Notes: generated from the sequence alone by a model not told the origin. A stretch of 64,000 bases of DNA from a virus (IMGVR_UViG_2974624810_000001:32001-96000); one strand, 5' to 3'; shown: positions 12,033 to 54,080, counted from the stretch's first letter. Made by a program: numbers and translations.

Positions 12033-15000
12033 GAATTCTTCTAAGAGACCTGACACCAGGTACCGACTATAACATTCAGCTACGTGCGAATGATGGAACA
12101 AACGTCTCCGACTGGAGCCGCATCTTTCCGCTCACAACAATTCAGGACACGCTAGCTCCAGCAGCCCCAACGGGGCTTACTTGGGTTGTCAATAGAACTG
12201 CTTTCTCTGCAAAGTGGGATGCAGTTACCCAGAATGCAGATGCCAGCCCACTCGAAGACTTCTCCCACTACCTTGTCAAGATTCAAATTCCTGGTGGTTC
12301 ATACGTAACCATCAAAACTACAAATACATTCTACGACCTGGCATTCGAGACGAACAAGGCTCTGTTCGGAACCCCACAAGCAAGCCTTGAATGCACCGTT
12401 TATGCAGTTGACCTGACTGGAAATGTATCTGTTCCTTCAACGACCCTTACTGCTACAAACCCACCACCACCTGACCCAACTGGAGTAGTTGCGGCCGGTA
12501 TTGTGGGTGGCGTTAGCATGCGTTGGGATGTACAGGTAATCGATGACCTTGCAGCTTATGACGTATACATGAGCACATCAGGTTCAGGATTCACCCCAAC
12601 GACCGCAAACAGAATTTATAGCGGTACTGGAAATACAGTCGTATATGACAGTAGCTCTCTAGGCGTCGTGCATTACTTCAAGATTCGCTCTCGTGACGTA
12701 TTCGATAGCATTTCAAATTACGTCACTGTTTCAGCGACCCCAATTTCACCAACTGACGTTGACACAACTCCACCAGGTGTTCCTACAGGTCTCACAGCAT
12801 CAATGGATGTCGACACAAATGATTCTGCATTTGCAGTGGCTACTGTGTCCTGGACTGCTCCATCTGATACTGACCTTGCTGGATATGTCGTTCGTTACAA
12901 GCAGAATGCTGATGCAGGATATGACTATGTCAATGTGCCTGTTGGAACGACCTCAATCATCATTGGTGGTCTGACTGTAGGTGTTCAGTACAACTTTGGT
13001 GTGCAGTCTTATGACCGAAGCACCAATAGAAGCGCCTACACCACAAACGTAAACGCGACGGCAGCCAATACGGCTCCGTCTACTCCTGCTGCCCCAACTG
13101 CATCTGTCAATACATTGCAGATTCAGGTAAACCACGCATTGCAGAAGGCAACCTCTGGTCGCCTGGAAGCAGATGTTAGCTACCTTGAAGTACACCTGGG
13201 AACGACCTCTACGTTCACTGCAAGCGACTCCACAATGATTGGACAATTGCAGGTGGAGCCTGGTAGCACATTCGTTTCTGAAATTTTCCCAGTAGCCGTC
13301 ACAGACTCTACTCAGGCCCGTTGGGTTCGAGTCATTGCTGTTGACCGTGGAGGACTCAAGTCTTCTGCATCAGCCGTAGCTGCTGTGACTGTCGGTCTCA
13401 TTTCTGACACGAACATCGCCAATGCCACTATTACCTCAGCCAAGATTAACAATCTCGATGCAAACAAGATTACGGCCGGTACTGGTATTATCAATGCTTT
13501 GCTCATCAAGAACTCATTGACTGTCGACACTGGCGGTACCATCAAGAGCACTAATTACGCAGCAGGCTCAGCAGGATATCAGCTATCCAACAACACCCTT
13601 GAAATCAATGGTGGTACGATTCGTGCGGCTGCTCTGCTATTGCAGGACGCTCCAAATATTCTTCTTCCTCAGTACGCTGACTTTGAATTCCAGTCAACTT
13701 GGTACACAGGAAAGACAACCACCTTCAATGACGGTGGTACAACAACATGGGCAATTGCAACCGCTCCTGAAGTAACTCCTAAGTTCGGTACTCAGTGCCT
13801 CAAGCACACTTGGACTGGTGGAGGAACATTCTCACGAGTTTATCAGTCATCAACCTTCACGGATTACAACACAGTATGTGAACCAAATACGGATTACATT
13901 GCCTCTGTTTGGGTGCTGAATCTTACGGGCTCTGGAGACAAGGGTGTCGGCTTCGCTGTAAAGCTTGCTGACGGTACATTCTTGCAGCCTGGTGGAACTC
14001 CAACGGTTACTGCAAACAGTACGTGGACTCGTATTTCCGGAACGTTCAATACCGGAAACAACACCAGCTTCCTCACCTACATGAGCCTCTACAATACAGG
14101 AAGCGTATACTTCGATGGGTTGCAGGTTGAGCGAAAGCTAACAAGCTCAACGACTCCTTCTCCATGGAGAGCACCAAGCACCACCTCTATTGATGGTGGA
14201 ATTATCCGTACTGGTGAAATTCGCTCTACCGCTCTGGCAAATGGTCTATCTGGTCAGCCAGCATGGTCAATTAACTTGACTGGTGGAGCGCAATTTGGTG
14301 ACGCTACAGTTCGAGGACGTATTGTCGTTGGTGACCCGAGCAACCCATCTGCTGATGGTGTAAACAGCCGAATTCATTCATCCAACTATGTGGCCGGTAC
14401 CACAGGATGGATTATTCGTAATGACGGTTATGCCGAGTTCCGTAATCTTGCTGTCAACTCAATCAAGGTAACCGCTCTTGACGCGCCTATGCAGAATAAC
14501 ACATACGCAAAGCTGTTCGACTATATGCAGGATGGCTCCCTATGGCTTACAAGCGGCTCTGTTTTGCAGAAGACCGACCCAGGTGCTTATTCTGCTGAAT
14601 CTCTGTTCGAGTTCACAGGTTCTGGCCTGGTTTTGAGAAACGCGACCGGTGTTACGAAGGTTGCTTACGACCCAACCATTCTGTACCGTATCTCAGCACG
14701 TATCCGTGCGTATGCTGTAGCTACCCTGAACGCTAACCCAGGCTTTGAAACAAACACGACTGGATGGTTCGCCTATGGTACAAACAGCATTACCAGAGAC
14801 ACCACCAAGCAGTTCACTGGAACTGCTTCTGTTCGATGGGACCAGGTTGGTGCCTCAAATGGTGTCTATGGAATGGGTACCGTTGTCAACGTAAAGCCAG
14901 GATACACCTACACATTCTCAGCTCGAATGCTTCCAAACAGCACCGTCATCCGAGACAATCTCAAGATGAACATTGTCTGGAAGGATGCTGCCAATGCAAC

Positions 15001-38566: not shown

Positions 38567-38818
38567 ATGCGTTACGAGGGCATTATTGAAGAGTATGAAA
38601 ACCTTCGTGAAAAGTGTTACAGAGCCATCAAGCGTGGCGACAGAAAGTTGCTCGGTAGTGATTATTGGCTTCGGGCAGCGATTCAGGAAACTGATATACA
38701 GATGATTGTTCACGCCAACGGTATCGAGTGCTATGGCTCTTGTTATACCATGCAGACGATGGATACTGAACACTTCAGCATTCTGATTCCTCTCTCAGAA
38801 TTGGAGAGTAATGACTGA
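38567..38818 (+). CDS. Hypothetical protein
   Basis: AAGGAG RBS. Confidence 0.6.
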   Translation: MRYEGIIEEYENLREKCYRAIKRGDRKLLGSDYWLRAAIQETDIQMIVHANGIECYGSCYTMQTMDTEHFSILIPLSELESND

Positions 38819-39416
38819 CGTAGATATTGTCCTTATCGTTGACCGCTCTGGTAGCATGATGCGAATTAAGGAAGAGGCAGAAGGAGCCCTCAACACGTTC
38901 CTTGACGAACAGCTAAGTGTTGAAGGTGATGTTTTTGTCACCTACGTGCAGTTTGATGACAGGTATGAGACCAAGTTTGAGAAGGTTGGTCTTGCCAATG
39001 CGGTTGGTACAGTAAGTATCGAGCCTCGTGGCATGACCGCCCTTCTTGACGCAATCGGTAAGACCGTAGTAAACTATGTACCACAGACCGAGAAGACAAT
39101 CTATGTCGTCATGACAGATGGCCTGGAGAATGCTTCACAGGAGTGGACCGTAGAGACGGTCAATCAGCTCATCACTGAATCAAAGCAGCACGGTGACGAA
39201 TTCGTTTATCTTGGTGCCAATCAAGACGCCATCGCAGTAGGCTCTAAGCTAGGAATCCCTGTGGCTTCCAGCCTGACCTTTGCTGCGGACAAGGCAGGAC
39301 TTGACGCGGTGTCAAGGAGTATGACAAGCTATGTAACAGCTACTCGTTCAGGTCTTGCCTACGAGTTCACTGACGAAGACCGTAAGAACGCAACGGGCTT
39401 GACAGACAGCGAGTGA
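38811..39416 (+). CDS. vWA-domain protein
   Basis: MIDAS DRSGSM, GMTALLDAIG, TDG.ENAS. Confidence 0.88.
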   Translation: MTDVDIVLIVDRSGSMMRIKEEAEGALNTFLDEQLSVEGDVFVTYVQFDDRYETKFEKVGLANAVGTVSIEPRGMTALLDAIGKTVVNYVPQTEKTIYVVMTDGLENASQEWTVETVNQLITESKQHGDEFVYLGANQDAIAVGSKLGIPVASSLTFAADKAGLDAVSRSMTSYVTATRSGLAYEFTDEDRKNATGLTDSE

Positions 39417-39427
39417 GCTGCTAAAGT
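39399..39427 (+). promoter_or_regulatory. Promoter for Y-like RNA 1 and first tRNA block
   Basis: TTGACA-N17-TAAAGT; predicted start about 39434. Confidence 0.75.
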
Positions 39428-39433
39428 AGTAAA

Positions 39434-39520
39434 TGTGGGTCGAAAGAGAGTTGGTTATCTTTCAAACAATGGTGAATACGCTCCGATAGGGGCTCTCCGA
39501 TTCTCGCCCTTATATCCACA
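39434..39520 (+). ncRNA. Y-RNA-like RNA 1 (minimal)
   Basis: TGTGGGT/ATCCACA terminal stem, GTCGAAAG motif, GAGAGTTGG/CCGATTCTC stem; homologous to 41008 and 47897. Confidence 0.7.
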
Positions 39521-39524
39521 CAAT

Positions 39525-39595
39525 GCATCGGTGGTGTAGTGGTAACACGCTGTCCTTCCAAGTCAGAATTGCGGGTTCGATTCCCGCTCGGTGCT
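39525..39595 (+). tRNA. tRNA-Gly(TCC)
   Basis: Cloverleaf; loop CTTCCAA; U73. Confidence 0.9.
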
Positions 39596-39729
39596 CCGAA
39601 GACCTGGATTCGCCTCTGCTGACTTTTGTCAGCACGCTACCAGCAAAATATAGTCCGGACTATATTTTGGCCTCTGGCCCGGAGGTGTTAAGAGAGTGAC
39701 AGGCTCTTTAACTGTCAGGGCAACACCAT

Positions 39730-39801
39730 TCCCCTTTGGTGTAACCGGCAACACAACAGACTCTGAATCTGTAGTTCCTAGTTCGAATCTAGGTTGGGGA
39801 G
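39730..39801 (+). tRNA. tRNA-Gln(CTG)
   Basis: ACAGA-CTCTGAA-TCTGT; two acceptor mismatches. Confidence 0.85.
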
Positions 39802-40008
39802 CTGGTCCGACTTTACGATATCGGCGGAAATAACGGAATCGGAACTCACATAATAACCATGGTAAAAGTGAGGAATGAGGAAGGGAAATAAGCGGGAAGC
39901 GATGGGTAAAACCTCCTCGGACCGACAACTTGAAGGTGGGCTGGTTGCATACTAGTTAGCGTAATCGAACCTCCAGCATTAACGTTGGCGTACTAACACC
40001 TTCAACAT

Positions 40009-40079
40009 ATGTCCTAAGTGTTACGGAAGCACGGAAGGCTCCAACCCTTCAGGCGTGGGTTCGACTCCTACAGGACATG
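40009..40079 (+). tRNA. tRNA-Trp(CCA)
   Basis: GAAGG-CTCCAAC-CCTTC; ATGTCCT/AGGACAT acceptor. Confidence 0.88.
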
Positions 40080-40094
40080 CAATTAATATAAAAT

Positions 40095-40124
40095 AGCCCC
40101 GGCCTAAATTAAAAGGCCGGGGCT
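40095..40124. terminator. Strong hairpin, possible terminator
   Basis: AGCCCCGGCCT / AGGCCGGGGCT inverted repeat with A-rich flanks. Confidence 0.55.
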
Positions 40125-40144
40125 GAAAACTTTAAGGAGGGAAA

Positions 40145-40654
40145 GTGGGATATTACACAGACTTCAGACTGAGTGTTGAAGGCTCTGGCCCGGTGTATGA
40201 TAAGCTCATGGCTGAGAAGGACAACGTAACCATCTCTCGTGGAGACTACGATTGGAACTTCGGCCGGTGGGTAAGCGAGAACTACACCGAAAACGCAAAG
40301 TGGTACGACTGGGAAGACGACATGAAGTCATTCTCTCGTGAATGGCCAAACGTGCTGTTCATCCTTGAGGGAAGTGGCGAGGAGCCAGGTGACATGTGGA
40401 AGGCATGGTTCAGAAATGGTGCCATGCGCAAGATTGAAGCCAAGATTGTCTTCGAGACCATTGACCCTGAGCTTGACAAGTACCTCCCATACGACTACGA
40501 TTTGGAGAAGAGGTTGGCCAAGAAGTACGTGGATGACCTCAAGGCGCGCAAGCAGGCCCTTGAAGCGGAGCTACTAAGGCTTCAGTCCACGCTTGACAGC
40601 CACACAGCAGATGATGTAAGCTTCAATAAGACGGTCAGCAAGGACAACCGCTGA
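40145..40654 (+). CDS. Hypothetical protein
   Basis: AAGGAGG RBS; MGYYT..KWY..F.LEG.GEE..D.W pattern. Confidence 0.75.
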   Translation: MGYYTDFRLSVEGSGPVYDKLMAEKDNVTISRGDYDWNFGRWVSENYTENAKWYDWEDDMKSFSREWPNVLFILEGSGEEPGDMWKAWFRNGAMRKIEAKIVFETIDPELDKYLPYDYDLEKRLAKKYVDDLKARKQALEAELLRLQSTLDSHTADDVSFNKTVSKDNR

Positions 40655-40662
40655 ACACGAGG

Positions 40663-40691
40663 TTGACACCAACTAGAGCATCTGCTAAGAT
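40663..40691 (+). promoter_or_regulatory. Promoter
   Basis: TTGACA-N17-TAAGAT. Confidence 0.75.
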
Positions 40692-40722
40692 TAAGTACAA
40701 CGCAGCAAGCGATTGCTGCTAT

Positions 40723-40794
40723 CAGGCACGGGGAAGATGGTAATCCGTTGGCTTTGGAAGCCTAAGAAACTCGGTTCGATTCCGAGGTGCCTGA
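40723..40794 (+). tRNA. tRNA-Pro(TGG), divergent copy
   Basis: CAGGCAC/GTGCCTG-A; loop TTTGGAA. Confidence 0.8.
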
Positions 40795-40929
40795 CCGAAT
40801 GCAGTTCCTAGGGACTGCACGTCCTGCGAGGGTGAGTGAGGGAGCGCCTGAATCTTGCGAGGTTCGGGACCGAGTTCGAGGCTCGGCACACTGCGTACTG
40901 GGGCTGATACGATAACTCAGCAAATACTT

Positions 40930-41004
40930 CGGGATATAGCTCAGCTTGGTCAGAGCGCTGCATTTGGGATGCAGAAGTCGCTGGTTCGAATCCAGTTATC
41001 CCGA
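40930..41004 (+). tRNA. tRNA-Pro(TGG)
   Basis: CTGCA-TTTGGGA-TGCAG; canonical. Confidence 0.93.
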
Positions 41005-41007
41005 CAA

Positions 41008-41157
41008 TTTGGGTCGAAAGAGATACGGTTATCTTACAATGGATAATAGGTTCGATTCCTATCGGTGCTGTAACATGCGCTGTGTAAGGTCATCCGAGAT
41101 GTGCGTGGTAGGATGGCATTGGGACTACGCTCTCTCCGTTCTCATCACTTACCTAAA
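41008..41157 (+). ncRNA. Y-RNA-like RNA 2 (YrlA-type, tRNA-mimic domain)
   Basis: TTTGGGT/ACCTAAA stem, GTCGAAAG, then T-arm ATAGG-TTCGATT-CCTAT, closed acceptor-like hairpin, D-like arm with TGGTA. Confidence 0.8.
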
Positions 41158-41166
41158 GGACTTATT

Positions 41167-41688
41167 ATGACGGTACTTCTTAGGACAATCCATGGAAGTC
41201 ACTTGTACGGACTCGCTCATAAGGGTTCAGATAAGGACATCTATGAAGTAATCGCTACGAAGCGCACCGCTCGTAAGCGAAACATTAAGCAAACCATCGT
41301 GAATGGAGTTGACAAAACGGTTGTAGACCTGTCAACATTCATGCATATGGTTGACGAATGCGTACCTCAAGCACTTGAAGCACTATGGACGCCGGTAGCT
41401 GAAGTTGATAGACTTCACGAATTCCGGACACAATATCGAGTGAATCGTGCCAAGATGAAGGAAGTATACATTCGAACTGCTCTGAACTTTGCCAAACACG
41501 ATGACGTAAAGCGTAAGCGACATGCAATTCGCTTGCTTCTGAATCTTGGTGCAGCATTGGAATACGGGAAGTTCAATCCCCGACTGTCCAATATGGATAA
41601 GTTCATTCTCCGCTCATCACTCGGAGAATCTGGAGCATATGAGGACGTCTTCCTTGGCGTTCTTGATGAAGTACAAAAGTGGGTCTGA
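41167..41688 (+). CDS. Pol-beta-superfamily nucleotidyltransferase (RlaP-like)
   Basis: HGSHLYGL...SDKD; AAGGA RBS before ATG 41167. Confidence 0.8.
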   Translation: MTVLLRTIHGSHLYGLAHKGSDKDIYEVIATKRTARKRNIKQTIVNGVDKTVVDLSTFMHMVDECVPQALEALWTPVAEVDRLHEFRTQYRVNRAKMKEVYIRTALNFAKHDDVKRKRHAIRLLLNLGAALEYGKFNPRLSNMDKFILRSSLGESGAYEDVFLGVLDEVQKWV

Positions 41689-41702
41689 AAGGCTCACGCC
41701 AC

Positions 41703-41779
41703 TGGGGCGTATACCCTCTGTCTGATAAACAGTTGAAAGGTTAAGTGGTCACATGTGGGTTCAACTCCCACCGTCCCAA
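41703..41779 (+). tRNA. Non-canonical tRNA-Ile(GAT), relocated D-loop
   Basis: Acceptor, anticodon and T arms intact; no D hairpin; AGTGGT lies 3' of the anticodon arm. Confidence 0.75.
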
Positions 41780-41819
41780 CTGGTCTCAATGGTGAGACAC
41801 TGACAACACAACTAATACT

Positions 41820-43637
41820 ATGGTAGATTTCGACAAGAGACATTCCAAGGAACTTGTGAAACGCCCTGACACAGACCTGGAGATTTCCAGGTCTTTTCGG
41901 TCTTCCGGTCAGGGTGTATTTTCGCATGTCCGGAAGGGTGTCAAAATAACGAGTAAGGCCATTCTGGATTGGGTCTATCTGAATGACTATAAGGAAGAGA
42001 TTGCCAAGGCTAGAAGTGATGGCAATCTGGAAAAGGCCCGGAAGCTGAAGATAGAGCAGGAAAAGCGTAGTGAACCAAGACGTAAAAGGTTCTACTCCAT
42101 CCTTGCTGTAGTTATTGCAATAATGGGATGGGCTTACGTCACCTGGAAGATAGTTCCATTGATTGTCATTGGTGTCGCCGTCCTTGTTGCCATGTGGTTC
42201 GTAGGCAGTGGCATGAAGCCTCAGAATCTGGCCTCTGTCATTGCTGGAAAAGGTGATGAAGTCGATGACCCTATGGAGCCTTTTCCAATTGCCGACGCTC
42301 GAAACAGAGACGAGGCTCAGGAGTGCTTGAGACGAGCACTGCTTGCTGAGGGAATCACTCCCAGAGTTATCTTGGAGCCAGTTCGTTACAATTGGGGTTG
42401 GGAAATCCCGGTAGTTCTGAGAAAGGGTACTCCTGATGATGTAATGGCTAAGGCTAAGAAGATGGAGACACTACTAAGACTTCCTAGTGATGGAATGCTA
42501 GTAGCTGCTACTCGATTCCGGGCCGAAGTTGTCATCAGACTTATGCAGACTGACCCATTTGCTGATATGCCTCCAGACCAAAGAGCAGAGCCTTTGTCTC
42601 GTTCTATTAAGAACAAGTACAAGATTGCTCAGCGAATGGATGGTCAGCACATTGAAATCTCCTTGCTTAGAAATCACGCAGTTGTTATTGCTGCTCCTGG
42701 TGGCGGTAAGTCAATGTTCATGCGTAAGCTGGCAGACATCACCACTAGCTGTAGAGACTGTGTAACCTGGGACATTGACCCTGGCGGCAATGGACTCGAA
42801 GTTTTCGGAGGAGCTATCGCAAGGCGCGGTAGGACCGAAGAGGAAATTGAAGAAATGCTAACCGAGGCTTTGGAATACACGAAGATTCGTGCAAAGAAGC
42901 TGACGAAGCTGGGAATGGGTGACAACTGGCAGCCAAGCAAGGACCATCCTGCCCTCATTATCTTCATTGATGAGTTCATTCAGCTAAACAAGAAGTGCAA
43001 GGATTTGGCCATTCAGATTATTCGCAATGGTCGTAAGGCTGCTATTACCGTTGTTTTGGCTGCACAGCAGGCTACAAAGGACACTCTTGGCGCTGCTATT
43101 GCAGATGCAGTGTCTATCAAGGTAATGTTTGCTTCTCGTCATGCTGACGTACCTCTCGTGTTCGGTGAGGGCATGTTGTCACAGGGCTGGAGACCTGATA
43201 GACTGCATCCAGCTTCAGGTGAAGACGTGGAAGACGCTGGTAAGTGCTACATTTTGGGCGGTGGCTCAAGAGAGCCTTACCTGTACAAGGTCTATCCAAT
43301 AGAACCAGATGAAGCCATTGAGATGGGTGATGAGCGTGAAGCAGAGGGCATGCCCGAACTTGACACAGACACCTACCTTGATGTTACAGTGACAGACACA
43401 ACAGACAAGCTCATGTTCGAACACGTGCTTGACATCTTTGAGAACTTTGACGAGCATGACTGGCTACCAGCCAGCATCTTGGTCAAGGAACTCAAGGGTT
43501 ATGGCCACACCTTGACAGCTCGTCAGTTGCATGAGATTCTGGGAGACACCGGCAGAGAAAGCCGTATTTGGGATGGTTCCAAGTACAAGGTTGCTGGTTA
43601 CTTCCGTAGAAACATCGAGAAGCAATTGGAGAAGTAG
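41820..43637 (+). CDS. FtsK/TraB-like membrane DNA translocase
   Basis: Two TM helices, AAPGGGKS, DIDP, IFIDEF, GRKAAIT...AAQ, C-terminal wHTH-like domain ending in GY. Confidence 0.85.
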   Translation: MVDFDKRHSKELVKRPDTDLEISRSFRSSGQGVFSHVRKGVKITSKAILDWVYLNDYKEEIAKARSDGNLEKARKLKIEQEKRSEPRRKRFYSILAVVIAIMGWAYVTWKIVPLIVIGVAVLVAMWFVGSGMKPQNLASVIAGKGDEVDDPMEPFPIADARNRDEAQECLRRALLAEGITPRVILEPVRYNWGWEIPVVLRKGTPDDVMAKAKKMETLLRLPSDGMLVAATRFRAEVVIRLMQTDPFADMPPDQRAEPLSRSIKNKYKIAQRMDGQHIEISLLRNHAVVIAAPGGGKSMFMRKLADITTSCRDCVTWDIDPGGNGLEVFGGAIARRGRTEEEIEEMLTEALEYTKIRAKKLTKLGMGDNWQPSKDHPALIIFIDEFIQLNKKCKDLAIQIIRNGRKAAITVVLAAQQATKDTLGAAIADAVSIKVMFASRHADVPLVFGEGMLSQGWRPDRLHPASGEDVEDAGKCYILGGGSREPYLYKVYPIEPDEAIEMGDEREAEGMPELDTDTYLDVTVTDTTDKLMFEHVLDIFENFDEHDWLPASILVKELKGYGHTLTARQLHEILGDTGRESRIWDGSKYKVAGYFRRNIEKQLEK

Positions 43638-43638
43638 A

Positions 43639-43854
43639 ATGTGGACAGCAGGAGTCATCCTGTATATCGCAGTCTGCGCCTACCTTTGTAAGAAGAAGGG
43701 TTGGCAGATTCATTACATTGCCTGGGGTATGGTGGGTGGTCTCATTCTTGCGACCATCGTTCCTTCCCTTCCGGCGCAGACGAAGACAACAATGGAGAAT
43801 GCTGCTCAGGCAGTCGTTTCAATCTTCGAAAGTTCAGGCATCGGGCAGGGTTGA
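43639..43854 (+). CDS. Small membrane protein
   Basis: GGAG RBS; two hydrophobic segments; starts 1 nt after translocase. Confidence 0.65.
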   Translation: MWTAGVILYIAVCAYLCKKKGWQIHYIAWGMVGGLILATIVPSLPAQTKTTMENAAQAVVSIFESSGIGQG

Positions 43855-43879
43855 CAGCAGCTTTGCCCAGATGTAAGAT
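43851..43879 (+). promoter_or_regulatory. Promoter
   Basis: TTGACA-N17-TAAGAT. Confidence 0.75.
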
Positions 43880-43912
43880 GTACTTAAACCTAGTCCTTGT
43901 GGGACTAGAGGA

Positions 43913-43985
43913 GCGCCTGTAGCATAACGGTCGATGCATCTGTCTTATAAGCAGACGATAGGGGGTTCAATTCCCTCCAGGCGTA
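43913..43985 (+). tRNA. tRNA-Ile(TAT)
   Basis: TCTGT-CTTATAA-GCAGA; A73. Confidence 0.85.
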
Positions 43986-44013
43986 CTTTGTAACTACTAG
44001 AGCAGGGGGAATA

Positions 44014-44175
44014 ATGGCACTCTCTTTGTCTGATGGCACTCGTGTAGAAATTACTCGTGGTGACCACAAGGGAAAGAAGGGCACTGTTCGCATGCAGGGC
44101 AAGAACAAGGTTGTCATTCTTGACAACGCTGTTGTGCTCATGGGTGTGAGTGATTCAAACACCAAGAGGTTGTAA
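44014..44175 (+). CDS. Small KOW-motif protein (not in ORF track)
   Basis: GTRVEITRGDHKGKKGTV. Confidence 0.6.
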   Translation: MALSLSDGTRVEITRGDHKGKKGTVRMQGKNKVVILDNAVVLMGVSDSNTKRL

Positions 44176-44357
44176 TGAAATGCAAGAAATGCGGGGAAAC
44201 TAAGAAGGAAGTGCGCATTGCTCCCATCGTAGGCGACCCGCTATGTCAGAAGTGCTGGAACGACGTGCAAACTGATATGCGTCGAAAAGGTGCTACTGGC
44301 AAAATAGATTACGAAGAGTACGTCCGTGTACAATATCCAAGATGGCTGAGGAGCTAA
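44175..44357 (+). CDS. Small zinc-finger protein
   Basis: CxxC..CxxC; GAGG RBS. Confidence 0.6.
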   Translation: MKCKKCGETKKEVRIAPIVGDPLCQKCWNDVQTDMRRKGATGKIDYEEYVRVQYPRWLRS

Positions 44358-44358
44358 A

Positions 44359-44538
44359 ATGGAAAACAAGGACAAGCTTGAGTTCGGCACCAAGGTCACC
44401 ATTTTCGGTGAGCACGCAACCGTATGGGACCTCTGCGAAAATAACACAAGCGTAATCAAGGTTCTCATGAAGAATGGCCGATTCGCTGGTGATGTTCTCA
44501 TTGCTGTTCTCGGCAAGGTAAAGCTGGGTTGGCGATAA
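44359..44538 (+). CDS. Small hypothetical protein (not in ORF track)
   Basis: GAGGAG RBS; 59 aa. Confidence 0.55.
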   Translation: MENKDKLEFGTKVTIFGEHATVWDLCENNTSVIKVLMKNGRFAGDVLIAVLGKVKLGWR

Positions 44539-44552
44539 TTCGTCAGCTCATT

Positions 44553-44637
44553 GGAAAGTAAGCGATTGGCTAGCAGGCATCTTGGAACGGTGCTAAGGGT
44601 GTTACAGCCCGGCTGGGTTCGATTCCCAGGCTTTCCG
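44553..44637 (+). tRNA. tRNA-Ser(GGA)
   Basis: GCATC-TTGGAAC-GGTGC; long variable arm; G73. Confidence 0.82.
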
Positions 44638-44650
44638 CAGGAGGTGTGAT

Positions 44651-44869
44651 ATGATTATCTGTGGGGACACAGTTAAAGTTAAGCACGGCCGTCCCAACGT
44701 GGACCCTGATTACTACGGCAAGCGTGGTAGGGTTCATAAGCGTACTCGAATGCTCGGTGTTCTAGGAGCAGGACAGTATGAAATTATGTTCTTCGACAGG
44801 TCTCTCAATCATCCAATCATGGGTGTTATGGGTGGCTTCAATGAAGAAGACCTGGAAGTTGAACGATGA
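44651..44869 (+). CDS. Small SH3/KOW-like protein
   Basis: AGGAGG RBS; GDTVKV..YGKRGRV..F.EEDLE. Confidence 0.65.
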   Translation: MIICGDTVKVKHGRPNVDPDYYGKRGRVHKRTRMLGVLGAGQYEIMFFDRSLNHPIMGVMGGFNEEDLEVER

Positions 44870-44878
44870 CTTCCTTAT

Positions 44879-44964
44879 GGAAATGTTAACGTTGGCAGCG
44901 TGGAAGGCTCTTGAAAAGCCTACGCCGGTGAAACGGCGCGTCGGTTCGAATCCGACCATTTCCG
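44879..44964 (+). tRNA. tRNA-Ser(TGA)
   Basis: AGGCT-CTTGAAA-AGCCT; long variable arm; G73. Confidence 0.85.
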
Positions 44965-44981
44965 CTTAAAGAAGGAGAGTA

Positions 44982-45410
44982 ATGTCACTAACTGGTGAAG
45001 CAAAGCGCGAATACCAGCGTAAGTGGGTTGCTGACAGGAGAGCCGCTGGGATAGAATATCTCGGTGGCTCTTGTCGTATATGTGGAGCTACTGAGAATCT
45101 AAACGTGGACCACAAGGACGCATCCACAAAAGTTGACCACAGAATATGGTCTTGGGCCTGGGACAGAGCGCTTAAGGAATTGGACAAGTGTCAACTTCTC
45201 TGTGAGAAGCATCATAGGGAAAAGACAAAGGCCAATGGCGAAACAAATCTTGGCGAAAAGAACGGGCAGGCAAAGCTGACTGTTAACATTGTTAAGCAAA
45301 TCAGAGAAGAGTTTGCCAAGGGCGATATCACAAAGGCGGCTTTGGCGAGAAAATATCGAGTGGACGAAAAGGCTATTAGAGACCTTCTCGCCGGAAGAAC
45401 TTGGAAATGA
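44982..45410 (+). CDS. HNH endonuclease with C-terminal HTH
   Basis: LGG.CxxCG..L.VDH.D..KCQLLC..HH; GEKNG.AKLT..LARKY.V. Confidence 0.85.
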   Translation: MSLTGEAKREYQRKWVADRRAAGIEYLGGSCRICGATENLNVDHKDASTKVDHRIWSWAWDRALKELDKCQLLCEKHHREKTKANGETNLGEKNGQAKLTVNIVKQIREEFAKGDITKAALARKYRVDEKAIRDLLAGRTWK

Positions 45411-45559
45411 TGAGTAAAGGAAAGAAGCAAAAGGACTGTTACCATGTCAACGTAAGAAAGATTTACGGTGACGAAATCATAGCTTCTGGCTGGAAGAGAG
45501 CCTACTGCTATGATTGTAAAAGATACCTACCGGAACTACCTCCAGAGAGGAAAAAGTAA

Positions 45560-45748
45560 ATGGCCAAGGATTTTCCAAAGGGGAACAACAAGAAGGACTT
45601 CATCGAGTTCCTTGAAAAGAACAAGATTGAGTTTTGGTGCTCCATCTGCAACACCGAAAATCCTCGCAAGTGTCAGTGCTGGACAGACATTCAGCGTTGG
45701 GAGCAGGTAGAGCTGTGGCAGGGTGAGGAAAGGCGCAAGAAAAAGTGA
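45560..45748 (+). CDS. Small Cys-rich protein
   Basis: GAGG RBS. Confidence 0.55.
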   Translation: MAKDFPKGNNKKDFIEFLEKNKIEFWCSICNTENPRKCQCWTDIQRWEQVELWQGEERRKKK

Positions 45749-46137
45749 GCGCTGTTCTTCTAGGTGTGCTGATGCACTTCATTGGTGACTATCTCATTCA
45801 GACAGACTGGATGGCACAACTGAAGACAAAACGCTGGGCACCAGCAATTGTCCACGGTGTCACATACGGTGTCCCGTTTGTCTTTGTCACGATGTCACCG
45901 ATAGCTTTGGCTGTCATCATTGTCACTCACATTGTCATCGACCATTATCGCCTGGCACGACATGTCGTCTGGGCAAAGAATCAGCTCGCCCCCAAGGAAT
46001 GGCGTTATTCATGGGCTGAGGGAAACCTCACTGGATATCGCAATGACGCACCGCCTTGGCTGACAACTTGGCTGATGATTATTGCGGACAACACAATCCA
46101 CATTGTCATCAACACTCTGGCCATCCTCTATCTATGA
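45745..46137 (+). CDS. Membrane protein (DUF3307-like)
   Basis: HFIGDY..QT.WMA..K, H...Y, H..ID, DN..H. Confidence 0.8.
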   Translation: MSAVLLGVLMHFIGDYLIQTDWMAQLKTKRWAPAIVHGVTYGVPFVFVTMSPIALAVIIVTHIVIDHYRLARHVVWAKNQLAPKEWRYSWAEGNLTGYRNDAPPWLTTWLMIIADNTIHIVINTLAILYL

Positions 46138-46145
46138 GGATGGCT

Positions 46146-46245
46146 TTTGTCATTCCCAGGACACTTTGTCATCTGTCCAGTGACACGTCCTGGGACATGA
46201 GGACATGTCCAGTGACATTCATGTGACATGTCCCAGGGCTGTCCT
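46146..46245. repeat. GACA/TGTC repeat locus
   Basis: 12 GACA/TGTC cores in 100 nt; TGTCCAGTGACA at 46174 and 46206. Confidence 0.85.
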
Positions 46246-46511
46246 CGAAATTTGAAAAATGGCGGGCGGCTCCGTATTCGCATCTCGTTTGTTCATTTGC
46301 GAGAGGGCGGCCCGGCGGCCCAGAAGGCGGAACTATGTCTTAAGAACCAGATGCAAGGAAGGGACCTAATGAGGTTCAAGGAGGGAGTTGACAGGATTCT
46401 AGAAGAGGTGCTAAGGTGTAGTTACACTAGAAAATATAAAGAAAAAGATGTTGAAAAACATCTAGAACCGATTAGAAATAGGTTCTAAATAATATAGAAT
46501 AAGATAAGGAT

Positions 46512-46799
46512 ATGAGACTCTTTGAACTTCATAGAGACGTAGATTCATCTGGCGTCTCTGGAACAGGAGTGGTAGCTCAGGGTGTAGAGTTTGACAGTGG
46601 TCAGTGTGCTATGACATGGTTGACCGAGTGGAACTCAGTAGCAGTCTATCCAGACATCACCACCCTTGAAGCAATCCATGGACACAACGGCAACACTCGT
46701 GTAGTCTATGTAGAAGGCCCAGTAACCGAGAGGCATGTCATTGTAGCTGGTAAGAAGGTTCCAGTCCGCACAGTTGACAGGTTCTCCGACAACCGCTAA
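46512..46799 (+). CDS. Hypothetical protein
   Basis: AAGGA RBS; F.L.R..D.SGVSGTG.VA.G..F..HGH.G.T motif. Confidence 0.75.
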   Translation: MRLFELHRDVDSSGVSGTGVVAQGVEFDSGQCAMTWLTEWNSVAVYPDITTLEAIHGHNGNTRVVYVEGPVTERHVIVAGKKVPVRTVDRFSDNR

Positions 46800-46880
46800 A
46801 GTAGAACATAGAGCAGGTCGGCAAGCAGGTAAGTGAGGAACACAGGAGCTTGAGCCACAACCCCTCCACCTAGCTCTCTT

Positions 46881-46956
46881 GCGTCTGTAGTATAGTCTGG
46901 TCCAATGCACCTGATTGTCAATCAGGAAATCGCGGGTTCAAATCCCGTCAGGCGCG
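46881..46956 (+). tRNA. tRNA-Asp(GTC)
   Basis: CCTGA-TTGTCAA-TCAGG; G73; promoter 46774-46802. Confidence 0.92.
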
Positions 46957-46985
46957 CACTAAAGTATAATCAACCGTGAGGAATC

Positions 46986-47156
46986 ATGAAGAGTAACTGG
47001 AAGTATTCCGCCCATTACAAATCTCCAAGCGGTGGCAAGGCTTCAATTACAAGTCAGGTCAAAGCCAACACCTTTGATGAAGCTTACGAACAAGTTCGTG
47101 ACCAGCTTAAGCATCAGAGCTTTGAGCTTGTTGGCATGGAATTGAGGAAGATGTAA
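46986..47156 (+). CDS. Small hypothetical protein (not in ORF track)
   Basis: GAGGA RBS; 56 aa. Confidence 0.55.
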   Translation: MKSNWKYSAHYKSPSGGKASITSQVKANTFDEAYEQVRDQLKHQSFELVGMELRKM

Positions 47157-47328
47157 TGGCAATCAGATTTTGTCCAAGCTGCATGCAAAATGTAGTGACA
47201 GAACCAACAGGTCCAAAATGCTCTCACTGTGGTGGGAACACGAAGCCTGTTGACAATAAGCTTCCGAAGCCGGAAGAGATTTTGAAGAAGTACACTTTCC
47301 GTAAGCCAAAACACAGAAAGCCTTAAAT

Positions 47329-47574
47329 ATGGCTGATAAGCTATGGCTCGTAGAGGGTCATTATACGAAGAACGGCACGAAGGAAACATTCGATAATGTT
47401 TTCTCTGCCTCTAACAAGTCCGGCGCTGAGAAGGCTGCAAAGAAGGATTTTGACAGCTATGTAAGTGCTGGATATGAGAAGAACGCAAAGTTCGGCAAGC
47501 TGACTGTTACTAAGGTCAGCGAGTGGACAGAGAAGGACCGCAAGGCATTTCTCAAGAAGAAGGGCATCAAGTAA
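47329..47574 (+). CDS. Hypothetical protein
   Basis: Similar to next ORF. Confidence 0.65.
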   Translation: MADKLWLVEGHYTKNGTKETFDNVFSASNKSGAEKAAKKDFDSYVSAGYEKNAKFGKLTVTKVSEWTEKDRKAFLKKKGIK

Positions 47575-47801
47575 TGTCAGTCATTGGCAAGAAGCCAAAC
47601 TGGACTGTTATAGGTAAGCTTGATGTGACATATCCAGGTCAGAAGAAGAAGACCGAAGAGTTCTGCAACTCATTTGTTGCGAAGAACAAGGCTGATGCAA
47701 TCAAGCAGGCTCAGAAGCTGTTTGATGAGATGAAGGATGACATCCCTGGTGTCACTTATGCCAATCTTCGCGCTCTGAAGGCAGAGCCTAGCGGTTGGTG
47801 A
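47574..47801 (+). CDS. Hypothetical protein
   Basis: TAATG coupling; similar to previous ORF. Confidence 0.65.
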   Translation: MSVIGKKPNWTVIGKLDVTYPGQKKKTEEFCNSFVAKNKADAIKQAQKLFDEMKDDIPGVTYANLRALKAEPSGW

Positions 47802-47821
47802 ACAGGGCCCGAAAGGGCTAT

Positions 47822-47892
47822 CCCGGCATAGTGTAGTGGAAACACGATACGTTGTCAGCGTATTATCGAGGGTTCAATTCCCTCTGTCGGGA
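47822..47892 (+). tRNA. tRNA with Asp(GTC) anticodon, atypical acceptor
   Basis: ATACG-TTGTCAG-CGTAT; C1:G72, A73. Confidence 0.8.
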
Positions 47893-47896
47893 CAAA

Positions 47897-48009
47897 GTGG
47901 GTCGAACGAGATATCGGTTATCTAAATTCCCTTGAAATGAATAAAGGCAGGTTCGAATCCTGCATCGCCCAAGGAACGGGCAATCTCCGATTCTCAACAA
48001 TATATCCAC
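47897..48009 (+). ncRNA. Y-RNA-like RNA 3
   Basis: GTGGGT/ATCCAC, GTCGAACG, T-arm GCAGG-TTCGAAT-CCTGC, GCCC/GGGC hairpin; 760 nt upstream of Ro60. Confidence 0.78.
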
Positions 48010-48014
48010 CAAAT

Positions 48015-48338
48015 ATGAATACAGAACAAAGAATTGCACGGTTCAAGGAACTGTGGAAGGAAAACACATATTTTGAGGATGCGCTAGGCTGGCTTCAAGA
48101 TGGAATTCCTGAAGGCGAATTCAAGCCTAAGTGGGTAGATACCATTGAAGAGGGCACAAGCCGATGGATGGTTCACATTCTTGAAGTAGTAGAGATTGAC
48201 GAAGGCGTGTACGTTGGTGTACGCTGGGAGCGAGGTAAGACAGAAATACAAGAGAACTTGTATGAAGATGACGATGTCTACCTACTTGAGCGTACAGAAG
48301 TGACCATAGTCGATTGGAAGGACAAGAAGACACTGTGA
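48015..48338 (+). CDS. Hypothetical protein
   Basis: Start moved to ATG 48015, downstream of the RNA. Confidence 0.65.
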   Translation: MNTEQRIARFKELWKENTYFEDALGWLQDGIPEGEFKPKWVDTIEEGTSRWMVHILEVVEIDEGVYVGVRWERGKTEIQENLYEDDDVYLLERTEVTIVDWKDKKTL

Positions 48339-48751
48339 AGAACTGGCTTGGACATGATATTGTCGTAGGAGCCGTTGTTTTTCGAGGCGGTCGTCAAGGA
48401 GACAGCTCCTCATTCCGTGTCGGGGTAGTTGATGACCTTGATACTTCCAAGGACCGAGAAGCGCGAGTAGACTGGAAGTTTGAAGCAGGTTGGCGAACCA
48501 TTTGGTTTGGTGAATCTGCTTGGGAGCGTGACAAGCGAAACTATCGTGTTCGTGGTCCGCACAAGTCCACTACTCAGCGCACTCGCTACGAAATCAATGA
48601 CCTTGTGCGACTTGAGGATGGTCTGATAGACTATCTGACACAACGAGATAAGCTGTGCACTGCTGCACAGCACTATGGAATCCTTCGAGAGGATTTCAAG
48701 CGATTCGAAGAAGACTTTAATGCAGGGAGAGTCCCTGAAATTATGCCTTAG
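48335..48751 (+). CDS. Hypothetical protein
   Basis: GTGA overlap with previous stop. Confidence 0.65.
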   Translation: MKNWLGHDIVVGAVVFRGGRQGDSSSFRVGVVDDLDTSKDREARVDWKFEAGWRTIWFGESAWERDKRNYRVRGPHKSTTQRTRYEINDLVRLEDGLIDYLTQRDKLCTAAQHYGILREDFKRFEEDFNAGRVPEIMP

Positions 48752-48768
48752 AAAGGGCCGGTAACAAA

Positions 48769-50421
48769 ATGTCAAACGCACTTAACAACGCTGCTAAGGG
48801 TCTCAACAAGACTGTTCAGACTCAGCGTGCTCGCCAGGACCAGGTACAGAACAACGCTGGAGGATTCGTCTTCCAGGTATCTGACCAGGCCAGGCTTGAG
48901 CGATTCCTTATTCTGGGTGTCGATGGTGGCACCTATTACGTCAAGGAAGTCGACCACGCCGAAAAGAGCGTAAGCTTCCTGAGCAAGATGATTGAGAAGG
49001 ACGAGGCGAGTGTGCTTCGTACCATTGTGGACGTGTCTGTCAATGGTCGTGCATATCGTCAGACTCCAGCTCTGTTCGCTCTCGCCATGCTGATTGCCAA
49101 CGGCAACAACAAGCAGGCTGTGAAGGCTGAGTTCAACAAGGTTGTTCGTACTGGTACCCACCTTTACGAAGTCCTGAACTTCCTGACTTCACTTGAGGTT
49201 GGATGGGGTCGTGCCAAGCGAGAGATTATTGCTTCTTGGTTTGACCGAGATGCTGACAAGCTGGCTTACCAGGCGGTCAAGTACCGTCAGCGTAGGTTCG
49301 GTGAGCAGTCTTGGACTCTCCGAGATGTAATGCGTCTTTCTCACCCACGCAATGTGAACACATCCGTTGCTGATTTTGTCCTGGGCAAGCCTCACGACGC
49401 TATCGATGACCTTCGGGCCATTGAGGGCTTCAAGAAGATGCAGCAGGCCAAGACTGTTGACGAGGTTCACGCTGTTCTCCGTGAGTACGAGATGCTTCCA
49501 TGGGAGACAATCCCAACTCAGTTCCACAAGGACGTGAGTGTGTGGAAGCGAATCTTCGCTAACGGTCAGCTTCGTGGTCAGGCTCTAGTCCGAAACATCA
49601 CTCGCCTAGCGAAGATTGGTGCTTTCAAGGACATGCGTTTCGCTGCTGCGTATGCAGGACAGCTCACGAATCAGGAGATGATTAGGCAGACTCGTCTGCA
49701 CCCAATCAACTTCTTGAACGCGGTTGTTGTGTACACCGAAGGCCAGATGAAGACCGTAAGGGACCGTTATGGCTGGGAGCGTGAGGAGCGTGTTCGTGGC
49801 TGGGAAGTCGAGAGTGTTATCGTGGATGCCCTCAATGAGGGATTCCACCTGGCATTCAAGACTGTGGAGCCAGCAGGTAAGCGAACGATGCTTGCTATTG
49901 ACGTATCAGGTTCTATGAGTGCAAAGGCTAGTGGTCTCGACCTTAGCTGCGCTCAGGTCTCTGGTGCAATGGCAATGACCATCGCTCGTACCGAGCCAGC
50001 TCACATCATCCGTGGTTTTACTGCGGGTAGTGGATACGGTTGGGGTCGTGCAAACGGTCTAACCGACCTTGGTATCAGTGCTCGTACAGACCTTGCTACG
50101 GCAATGCGTAATGTACAGCGCCACAACTGGGGCGGTACGGATTGTAGCCTTCCAATTCGTTGGGCACAGGAGAACGGTGTAGATGTTGACACCTTTGTGG
50201 TTATCACTGATAACGACACATGGGCTGGTGACATTCACCCATTCCAGGCGCTCAAGGAGTACCGTAAGAAGACCGGAATCGACGCTCGCATGGCAGTTCT
50301 GGGAGTTCAGGCAACTGAGTTCACCATTGCTGACCCACGTGACCGTGGAATGATGGACTTCGTAGGATTTGACAGCAATGCACCTCGTGTGCTGGCTGAC
50401 TTCTCCGCTGGTCGTATCTGA
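48769..50421 (+). CDS. rsr: Ro60/Rsr TROVE-domain RNA-binding protein
   Basis: NNAGGFVF..RLERFLILG..GGTYY; YQAVKYRQR..RDVMRLSHP; DVSGSM vWA; GGTDCSLP; TIADP.D.GM.D.VGFD. Confidence 0.96.
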   Translation: MSNALNNAAKGLNKTVQTQRARQDQVQNNAGGFVFQVSDQARLERFLILGVDGGTYYVKEVDHAEKSVSFLSKMIEKDEASVLRTIVDVSVNGRAYRQTPALFALAMLIANGNNKQAVKAEFNKVVRTGTHLYEVLNFLTSLEVGWGRAKREIIASWFDRDADKLAYQAVKYRQRRFGEQSWTLRDVMRLSHPRNVNTSVADFVLGKPHDAIDDLRAIEGFKKMQQAKTVDEVHAVLREYEMLPWETIPTQFHKDVSVWKRIFANGQLRGQALVRNITRLAKIGAFKDMRFAAAYAGQLTNQEMIRQTRLHPINFLNAVVVYTEGQMKTVRDRYGWEREERVRGWEVESVIVDALNEGFHLAFKTVEPAGKRTMLAIDVSGSMSAKASGLDLSCAQVSGAMAMTIARTEPAHIIRGFTAGSGYGWGRANGLTDLGISARTDLATAMRNVQRHNWGGTDCSLPIRWAQENGVDVDTFVVITDNDTWAGDIHPFQALKEYRKKTGIDARMAVLGVQATEFTIADPRDRGMMDFVGFDSNAPRVLADFSAGRI

Positions 50422-50422
50422 C

Positions 50423-50446
50423 AAAAACCCCTCTTCGGAGGGGTTT
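50423..50446 (+). terminator. Intrinsic terminator
   Basis: AAACCCCTC-TTCG-GAGGGGTTT. Confidence 0.85.
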
Positions 50447-53971: not shown

Positions 53972-54080
53972 AGGAACATAGTTTAATAGGTAAAACCGCG
54001 AAATGCAATGTCGAACGCAGCCTGAACGCTGCTAGTAGATAACAGAGTAGCAATTGTCGGTTCGAATCCGGCTGTTCCGC
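53972..54080 (+). ncRNA. tRNA-like RNA with anticodon arm replaced by a larger domain
   Basis: GGAACA/TGTTCC acceptor, D arm GTTT-AATAGGTA-AAAC, T arm GTCGG-TTCGAAT-CCGGC, about 55 nt between them. Confidence 0.6.

Follow-up and report, generated by a model that had tools for sequence, protein, structure and literature searches.

Candidate Y RNA-type partners of a phage-encoded Ro60 in the tRNA array of a Streptomyces cluster BE phage

The DNA analysed here (IMGVR_UViG_2974624810_000001:32001-96000; 64,000 nucleotides (nt), hereafter the window) belongs to a Streptomyces cluster BE phage (Stanwilliamsviridae, Samistivirus) and carries three short loci, termed Y-like RNAs 1, 2 and 3 (copies 1, 2 and 3), within a tRNA array on the same strand as a Ro60 gene. 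The best match is phage Bmoc (85% nucleotide identity), and there are 110 related records. The whole genome spans 131,976 bp (~132 kb) with direct terminal repeats, and contains 41 tRNA-type genes and a transfer-messenger RNA. The three loci constitute one conserved, structured RNA family, and probably encode Y RNA-type partner RNAs of the phage's own Ro60. The features on which this reading draws are listed below, with positions counted from the first letter of the window.

39399-39427, plus strand: sigma-70-like promoter (TTGACA-17-TAAAGT, with an upstream TG); predicted start at ~39434, the first base of RNA 1; sequence kept in phage Bmoc (locus L006, position 1142)
39434-39520, plus strand: Y-like RNA 1, 87 nt; handle and two small hairpins, a YrlB-like short form; first gene of the tRNA array
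39525-39597, plus strand: tRNA-Gly(UCC), starting 4 nt past the end of RNA 1
40930-41005 (end 41004 or 41005), plus strand: tRNA-Pro(UGG), no encoded CCA; RNA 2 begins 2-3 nt later
41008-41157, plus strand: Y-like RNA 2, 150 nt; handle, V-like hairpin, T arm, acceptor-like hairpin and two crossing helices
41167-41688, plus strand: gene for an RlaP-family (PF10127) Pol-beta nucleotidyltransferase; ATG 10 nt after the end of RNA 2
47822-47893 (end 47892 or 47893), plus strand: tRNA-Asp(GUC), ~3 nt 5' of RNA 3
47896-48010, plus strand: Y-like RNA 3, 115 nt; handle with T arm and a single GC hairpin; opens the unit terminating in Ro60
48015-48338, plus strand: conserved small open reading frame (ORF), no assigned function; 4 nt after RNA 3, no evident Shine-Dalgarno sequence; Bmoc gene 125
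48314-48751, plus strand: conserved ORF, no assigned function; likely start GTG at 48335, overlapping the stop of the previous ORF; Bmoc gene 126
48769-50421, plus strand: full-length Ro60/Rsr orthologue (TROVE HEAT-repeat ring and C-terminal vWA domain), identified through Pfam, NCBIfam and 2NVO
50425-50446, plus strand: terminator-like hairpin, immediately 3' of Ro60

The common part of the three RNAs, here called the handle, is closed by a 7-bp stem, which a GUCGAAN bulge separates from a second stem of ~9 bp; CGGUUAUCU and an internal loop of ~8 nt on the 3' side complete it. The loci are alignable over a 5' module and over a 3' module (UCUCCGNUUCUC, ~8 nt and the closing strand), and the 5' and 3' ends together form a stem-internal loop-stem that bears the motif and shows covariation in both stems. 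Scanning the window for GGGTCGAANGAGA with zero mismatches returned positions 39437, 41011 and 47899 only, all on the plus strand. A profile of the 5' module (closing strand, GUCGAAN, GAGA.., CGGUUAUCU) found exactly three sites in the window and the same three in the whole genome; when built without the window's own copies, it recovered all three (E 6e-9 to 1e-6). The 5' and 3' signatures that an earlier note on this DNA had reported at these loci are confirmed. The same note had described paired termini that change together, and this also holds: the quoted closing stems TGTGGGT/ATCCACA (copy 1), TTTGGGT/ACCTAAA (copy 2) and (A)GTGGGT/ATCCAC(C) (copy 3) are present, and the minimum-free-energy folds of all three copies (3/3) contain the closing stem, a 5-nt CGAAN bulge and the second stem.

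Bacterial YrlA and YrlB RNAs are defined by a 5' GNCGAAN0-1G motif followed by YUAY opening the V region, to which YrlA adds permuted T, acceptor-like and D stem-loops (PMC4201824). Both 5' signatures occur in the window copies, GNCGAAN0-1G first and then YUAY inside CGGUUAUC. The former reads GUCGAAAG in copies 1 and 2 and GUCGAACG in copy 3, lies 5-6 nt from the 5' end and has GUCGAA(A/C)G in common among all three copies; the latter is represented by UUAU inside GGUUAUCU, which is invariant across them.

The wider distribution of the handle was determined in 40 IMG/VR loci centred on Ro60 homologues, extending 10 kb to either side and searched on both strands with the 5' module profile; these loci and profile searches replaced a strict DNA pattern scan of IMG/VR, which had yielded 4 loci only. 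The profile has 2-4 matches per BE-type locus and 2-5 in more distant Ro60 phages, and all significant matches lie on the Ro60 strand and upstream of Ro60, except for a weak one at position 13206 of locus L018 (E 0.005). Copies 1 and 2 are syntenic with Ro60 in all BE loci; in the distant loci, the Y-like matches cluster within 3 kb upstream of Ro60. The 7-nt closing strands vary through the family and yet remain complementary (UGUGGGU/AUCCACA, UUUGGGU/ACCUAAA, UGCGGGU/AUCCGCA, UGAGGGU/AUCCUCA, AUCGGGC/GCCCGAU, UGCGAGU/AUUCGCA, GAUGGGC/GUCCAUC). Stem 2 is formed in 54/54 distinct family members from very different sequences, with a mean z of -1.96 relative to shuffled 3' strands. Full-length copy 2 is found in 81 GenBank phage records at 75-93% identity, and is annotated in none of them (0/81).

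The interiors enclosed by the handle differ between the copies. RNA 1 has a small hairpin that starts from UUAUC, followed by a GC hairpin, and has no T arm; its orthologues were compared in 8 loci, where two stem-2 pairs switch between GC and AU. RNA 3 carries a canonical T arm (GCAGG-UUCGAAU-CCUGC) and one hairpin. Among its orthologues (n=12), 95.2% of cells are paired versus 30-48% when slid, and the covariation score is 0.427 against 0.159 after shuffling, with 0/500 shuffles reaching 0.427; both partners have changed in three pairs of the T stem and in a single pair of each of three other helices (closing stem, stem 2, hairpin). The inner part of stem 2 of RNA 3 was scored by duplex energies rather than by columns, as the MAFFT alignment of the orthologues has it out of register between BE1 and BE2. 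The corresponding values for RNA 2 (n=14) are 98.0% of cells paired versus 38-49% when slid, with a covariation score exceeding all 500 shuffles; each covariation alignment contains 8-14 kindred sequences, so that the compensatory changes represent few independent events. A reading of copy 3 as a tRNA fold in native topology, prompted by a sub-threshold tRNA match (25.5 bits), was rejected on the ground that the D-like stem AGAU/AUCU is lost in orthologues.

RNA 2 has the most elaborate interior. It opens with a V-like hairpin (UUAUC/GAUAA) and continues with a canonical T arm (AUAGG-UUCGAUU-CCUAU) and an acceptor-like hairpin whose top varies between subclusters. Two crossing helices follow, GYCAUCY/GGAUGRC (7 bp) and G(Y)GUGUGG/CUACAC(R)C (8 bp), each with compensatory changes; they represent two alternative folds or else an H-type pseudoknot, for which the loops of 6, 2 and 8 nt seem workable. 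A D-loop-like GUGGUAG string is retained within the 7-bp helix, which is crossed by the 8-bp helix, and there is no canonical D arm. The earlier note's account of the interiors therefore stands for copy 1 (no T arm) and copy 3 (T arm plus one hairpin), and in part for copy 2: its T arm and acceptor-like hairpin are present, and what had been taken for a D-like arm is the pair of crossing, covarying helices. The accompanying description of copy 2 as a permuted tRNA mimic does not hold cleanly, given the lack of a true D arm and of any Rfam YrlA match at E<=10.

In locus L009 (1858-1991), the RNA 2 orthologue has its T arm and acceptor-like hairpin exchanged for another hairpin (GCGACGUAAAAACUCGC), with the handle and crossing helices retained. 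At the level of sequence this is direct evidence of module exchange, and together with the differing middles of the window copies it agrees with the modular architecture proposed at the outset. In the same locus the RlaP match (from protein residue 3 onward) lies 644 nt from the start of the RNA 2 orthologue, versus ~160 nt elsewhere.

Directly downstream of RNA 2, the RlaP-family assignment rests on a Pfam match of 25.4 bits (cut-off 23; E 1.3e-5) that covers profile positions 19-159 of 249 only, and the ORF has no NCBIfam match. Enzymes of this family add 1-2 nucleotides to damaged RNA 3' ends and help to restore damaged tRNAs (bioRxiv 10.64898/2025.12.29.696909; PMC7824862). The gene begins 159-163 nt from the start of RNA 2 in 13/14 BE loci, and its Shine-Dalgarno sequence AAAGGA overlaps ACCUAAA, the 3' strand of the RNA 2 closing stem. 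In the distant loci L043 and L026, too, RlaP homologues are found at a distance of 1-4 kb from Ro60.

Copy 3 heads a single co-oriented unit composed of RNA 3, two small conserved ORFs, Ro60 and the terminator. The product of 48769-50421, named as Ro60 from the start, matches Pfam vWA_Ro60 (PF25045; 1e-57) and TROVE (PF05731; 3.5e-31), Deinococcus radiodurans Rsr (2NVO; 9.5e-100, residues 8-549) and the NCBIfam Rsr model NF041674, the last with 443 bits over 11-530 of 531, which is under the 900-bit equivalog cut-off. Ro60 homologues occur in 354 phage records, 113 of them from Streptomyces phages. The two ORFs at 48015-48338 and 48314-48751 have no Pfam or NCBIfam match.

Sister phages of subcluster BE1 carry a fourth handle-bearing RNA directly after tRNA-Ile(UAU) (L010 6224-6368; L008 4439-4583; L016 4377-4521; L017 4187-4331). 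It has the same handle, a canonical T arm, an acceptor-like hairpin and a D arm, and the L010 sequence matches Rfam YrlA (RF02553) over positions 1-114 of 114 with 34.8 bits (E 1e-4). This RNA is absent from the window (after 43986) and from Bmoc as a clean indel of ~145 nt. In BE2 phages a tandem pair (L011 9412-9523 and 9533-9600; likewise in L012-L015 and L023) lies 0.4-0.6 kb upstream of Ro60 and consists of a T-arm form and a 68-nt minimal form, the latter with the closing stem AUCGGGC/GCCCGAU and the motif GGCCGAAUGG or GGCCGAAGAG. Judged from these sequences, the repertoire of Y-like RNAs turns over among close relatives, which differ in the members they carry.

Several published systems resemble the window RNAs. 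The nearest counterpart is YrlA (RF02553) of Salmonella, Mycobacterium smegmatis and cluster C mycobacteriophages such as ET08. The likeness comprises GNCGAAN0-1G followed by YUAY in a CGGUUAYC block, the stem-bulge-stem handle, a UUCGAAU-type T arm (copies 2 and 3), an acceptor-like hairpin after the T arm (copy 2) and a position upstream of Ro60 on its strand; moreover, a sister phage has a full YrlA-type RNA with an identical handle. The published ET08 YrlA carries GGCCGAGAG..CGGUUACC, and the short RNA that follows it (L046 4340-4407) carries GGCCGAAGG..CGGUUAUC. When a profile was built from Streptomyces phages only, with no ET08 and no window sequences, the ET08 short Y-like RNA was its top match (E 0.005). 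As the handle is shared with a fourth RNA that scores approximately like the published ET08 YrlA, the three copies are very probably Y RNAs. The window copies differ from YrlA in that they lack a canonical D arm and an RF02553 match, copy 3 stops at a single hairpin, the distance to Ro60 is 7.6-9.3 kb for copies 1 and 2, and all three adjoin tRNAs in an array of ~40 genes. Of the tRNA-like stem-loops that define YrlA, the T arm occurs in copies 2 and 3, where it shows compensatory changes, and is missing from copy 1, and the D stem-loop is missing from copies 1 and 3 and replaced by the crossing helices in copy 2, its canonical form occurring in sister phages only.

Copy 1 is closest to the short YrlB Y RNAs (Salmonella, M. 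smegmatis) and the ET08 short RNA, being 87 nt long with a Ro-type handle and no tRNA-like domain; the sequence likeness is nevertheless confined to the handle, and copy 1 heads a tRNA operon rather than neighbouring a YrlA gene. Copy 3 resembles D. radiodurans Yrn1, which acts with Rsr and PNPase in the RYPER complex and underlies the gate/tether model, in having a T-arm-like stem-loop and no full D arm; Yrn1 differs in arm order and has no detectable sequence homology past the motif (PMC4201824). As the earlier note had stated, pairs of Ro60 and Y RNA are established in some phages (PMC4201824; PMC12135203). In Thermus phage phiLo, a phage Ro60 is likewise accompanied by more than one upstream phage Y-like RNA with a CGAA bulge between stems, namely Yrl1 and Yrl2 (PMC12135203), which bind the phage Ro60 and host PNPase in vitro (PMC12135203). 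That phage is of another lineage and host, its RNAs adjoin Ro60 and are not described as tRNA-linked or T-arm-bearing, and the present RNAs, unlike those of phiLo, are known from sequence alone.

Some observations weigh against assigning the window copies to Ro60. Chen et al. (2014) recovered such RNAs in 254 bacteria and 22 phages, no further than 4 kb from Ro60 (PMC4201824); copy 3, at 0.76 kb upstream, is within this distance, whereas copies 2 and 1, at 7.6 and 9.3 kb, are beyond it. In some copy 2 orthologues the motif reads GUCGAUUG, so its second A is not invariant. All relatives compared carry Ro60, the loci having been chosen around it. Searches of the genome for RtcB, Rnl2 and a CCA-adding enzyme were negative, and with neither RtcB nor Rnl2 the bacterial rsr-yrlA-rtcBA context is not reproduced. 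Finally, the Infernal check that the earlier note had suggested was negative, with no match of the Rfam YrlA and Y RNA models to any of the three window copies at the gathering threshold or at E<=10. This last result gives no ground for rejection: the published ET08 YrlA, at 37.4 bits, and the sister-phage RNA, at 34.8 bits, likewise fall short of the Rfam gathering threshold of 69.

Every copy lies at a boundary beside a tRNA, and one alternative is that the loci are Ro60-independent cis elements of tRNA-mRNA transcripts, serving as punctuation, processing signals, RNase entry sites, insulators or 5' untranslated regions that control translation. The overlap of the RNA 2 closing stem with the RlaP Shine-Dalgarno sequence, an arrangement kept in 13/14 loci, and the ending of copy 3 only 4 nt before an ORF are consistent with such a role. 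It is nonetheless improbable as the explanation of the family: the gene downstream of copy 1 is a tRNA rather than a coding sequence, the element is missing from over 30 further tRNA boundaries of the array, the handle has Y RNA motifs that it shares with the YrlA-type RNA of sister phages, and the elements occur upstream of Ro60 only. For copy 2, moreover, a cis role could coexist with Ro60 binding. An explanation to which we give no more credence is that the handle is read by another protein, such as the RlaP-family enzyme, the product of one of the two small conserved ORFs before Ro60 or a host factor, so that linkage to Ro60 would be a neighbourhood effect. It draws on the tight coupling of copy 2 to the RlaP gene and on the RlaP homologues near Ro60 in L043 and L026, but RlaP adjoins only 1/3 copies and the Y-like matches of distant loci lie within 3 kb upstream of Ro60 and not by RlaP; in addition, GNCGAA and the stem-bulge-stem are known Ro60 recognition features (PMC4201824; PMC12135203).

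The T arms of two copies and the sub-threshold tRNA match of copy 3 might also be taken to mean that the loci are degenerating relics of tRNA genes, or repeats that arose by chance amid many tRNAs. This is hardly credible: the most conserved and covarying part is the non-tRNA handle, which contradicts decay; copy 1 has no tRNA part; the D stem AGAU/AUCU implied for copy 3 is not retained in orthologues; and copy 2 is conserved at full length in the 81 phage records, with 75-93% identity.

If the loci do encode partner RNAs of Ro60, they would be co-transcribed with tRNAs from TTGACA-N17-TAARRT promoters. RNA 1 would begin at a transcription start and acquire its 3' end through the RNase P cut at the 5' end of tRNA-Gly, and the 5' ends of RNAs 2 and 3 would arise from 3' processing of tRNA-Pro and tRNA-Asp, respectively. 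The transcription start predicted at copy 1 fits the promoter at 39399-39427, and the tRNA spacing of at most 5 nt claimed for each copy was measured at 2-4 nt. Ro60 would bind the handle with its GUCGAA, in the manner of other Ro60/Y RNA particles, and the variable interiors could serve as gates or tethers by analogy with Deinococcus, Salmonella and phiLo: the T-arm-bearing RNAs 2 and 3 may bring Ro60 to proteins that recognise tRNA shape or to host PNPase, and the short RNA 1 may mainly gate the Ro60 cavity. Outside the window (L047), a genome scan detected an Rnl1-type RNA ligase domain (PF09511, 53.7 bits) in a 372-aa open frame at G000:C1:99685-100254, which with RlaP and Ro60 suggests a candidate RNA-repair toolkit. 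Given the 41 tRNAs, the RlaP gene directly behind RNA 2 and this ligase, the particle would most likely survey, degrade or repair structured RNAs during infection, with tRNAs as the chief targets. As all three copies lack an anticodon arm, they are unlikely to act as decoys for anticodon nucleases. A more specific proposal treats the Y-like RNAs as exchangeable adaptor cassettes beside tRNA genes, with RNA 2, by virtue of its putative pseudoknot and of the conserved overlap with the RlaP ribosome-binding site, as a dedicated scaffold or regulator coupling Ro60 to RlaP and the Rnl1-type ligase in a tRNA-repair particle that counters host tRNA-cleaving defences; it is conceivable, though we consider it rather unlikely.

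A phage Ro60 with several Y-like RNAs, and the view of these RNAs as a modular handle plus effector, are already published (PMC4201824; PMC12135203), and what is added here is a new phage group for a known RNA-protein particle, with no new principle. Some features are variant, namely the spread over 9 kb of tRNA array, the crossing-helix module and the coupling to RlaP. In full-text searches no paper on Y RNAs in Streptomyces phages or actinobacteriophages was found, though a Streptomyces phage among the 22 of Chen et al. is not excluded; the Bmoc record has no non-coding RNA annotated anywhere in the region. If the assignment is correct, more than 100 sequenced Streptomyces cluster BE phages would gain 3-5 annotated Ro60 partner RNAs per genome, and the customary criteria (a distance of up to 4 kb from Ro60; an Rfam score of at least 69 bits) would miss most phage Y RNAs. 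Ro60 and Y RNAs would also be physically linked with tRNA operons and with the RNA-repair genes RlaP and Rnl1. The phages are easily grown and engineered and offer natural variants (presence/absence, module swaps), which would make the system convenient for asking which partners the variable half of a Y RNA brings in, and equally what a virus gains from a Ro60 particle.

A further structured RNA lies at 53972-54080 (plus strand). It is tRNA-shaped, with acceptor, D and T arms (Rfam tRNA, 35.4 bits) and an anticodon arm replaced by ~57 nt. The insert reads ..AUGCAAUGUCGAACG, a variable hairpin and UAGUAGAUAACAGAGUAGCA..; across 10 BE loci the flanking blocks are kept and the hairpin varies. The RNA contains GUCGAACG, is missed by the handle profile and could be an additional partner of Ro60 with the native topology of a tRNA. 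The earlier count of three thus stands for the handle family, and this conserved RNA may be an extra partner beyond it. Trans pairing between handle GUUAUCU and AGAUAAC (54037-54043) was considered and rejected, as relatives read AGAUAUC and their handles still read GUUAUCU.

Other observations concern the tRNA array and its upstream border. Just 5' of the RNA 1 promoter, a 201-aa ORF (38811-39416, plus strand) has weak, sub-threshold vWA matches (VWA_2, 23.5 bits; VWA, 22.4 bits). Sites of the RNA 1 promoter type (TTGACA-17-TAAGAT/TAAAGT) recur before tRNA groups at 40663-40691, 43851-43879 and 46774-46802 (plus strand), and such recurring promoter-like sites suggest that the array is transcribed as several short units. 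A strong GC hairpin at 40095-40124 (AGCCCCGGCC..GGCCGGGGCT) follows tRNA-Trp and has a terminator score on the minus strand; it may act bidirectionally or be a processing site.

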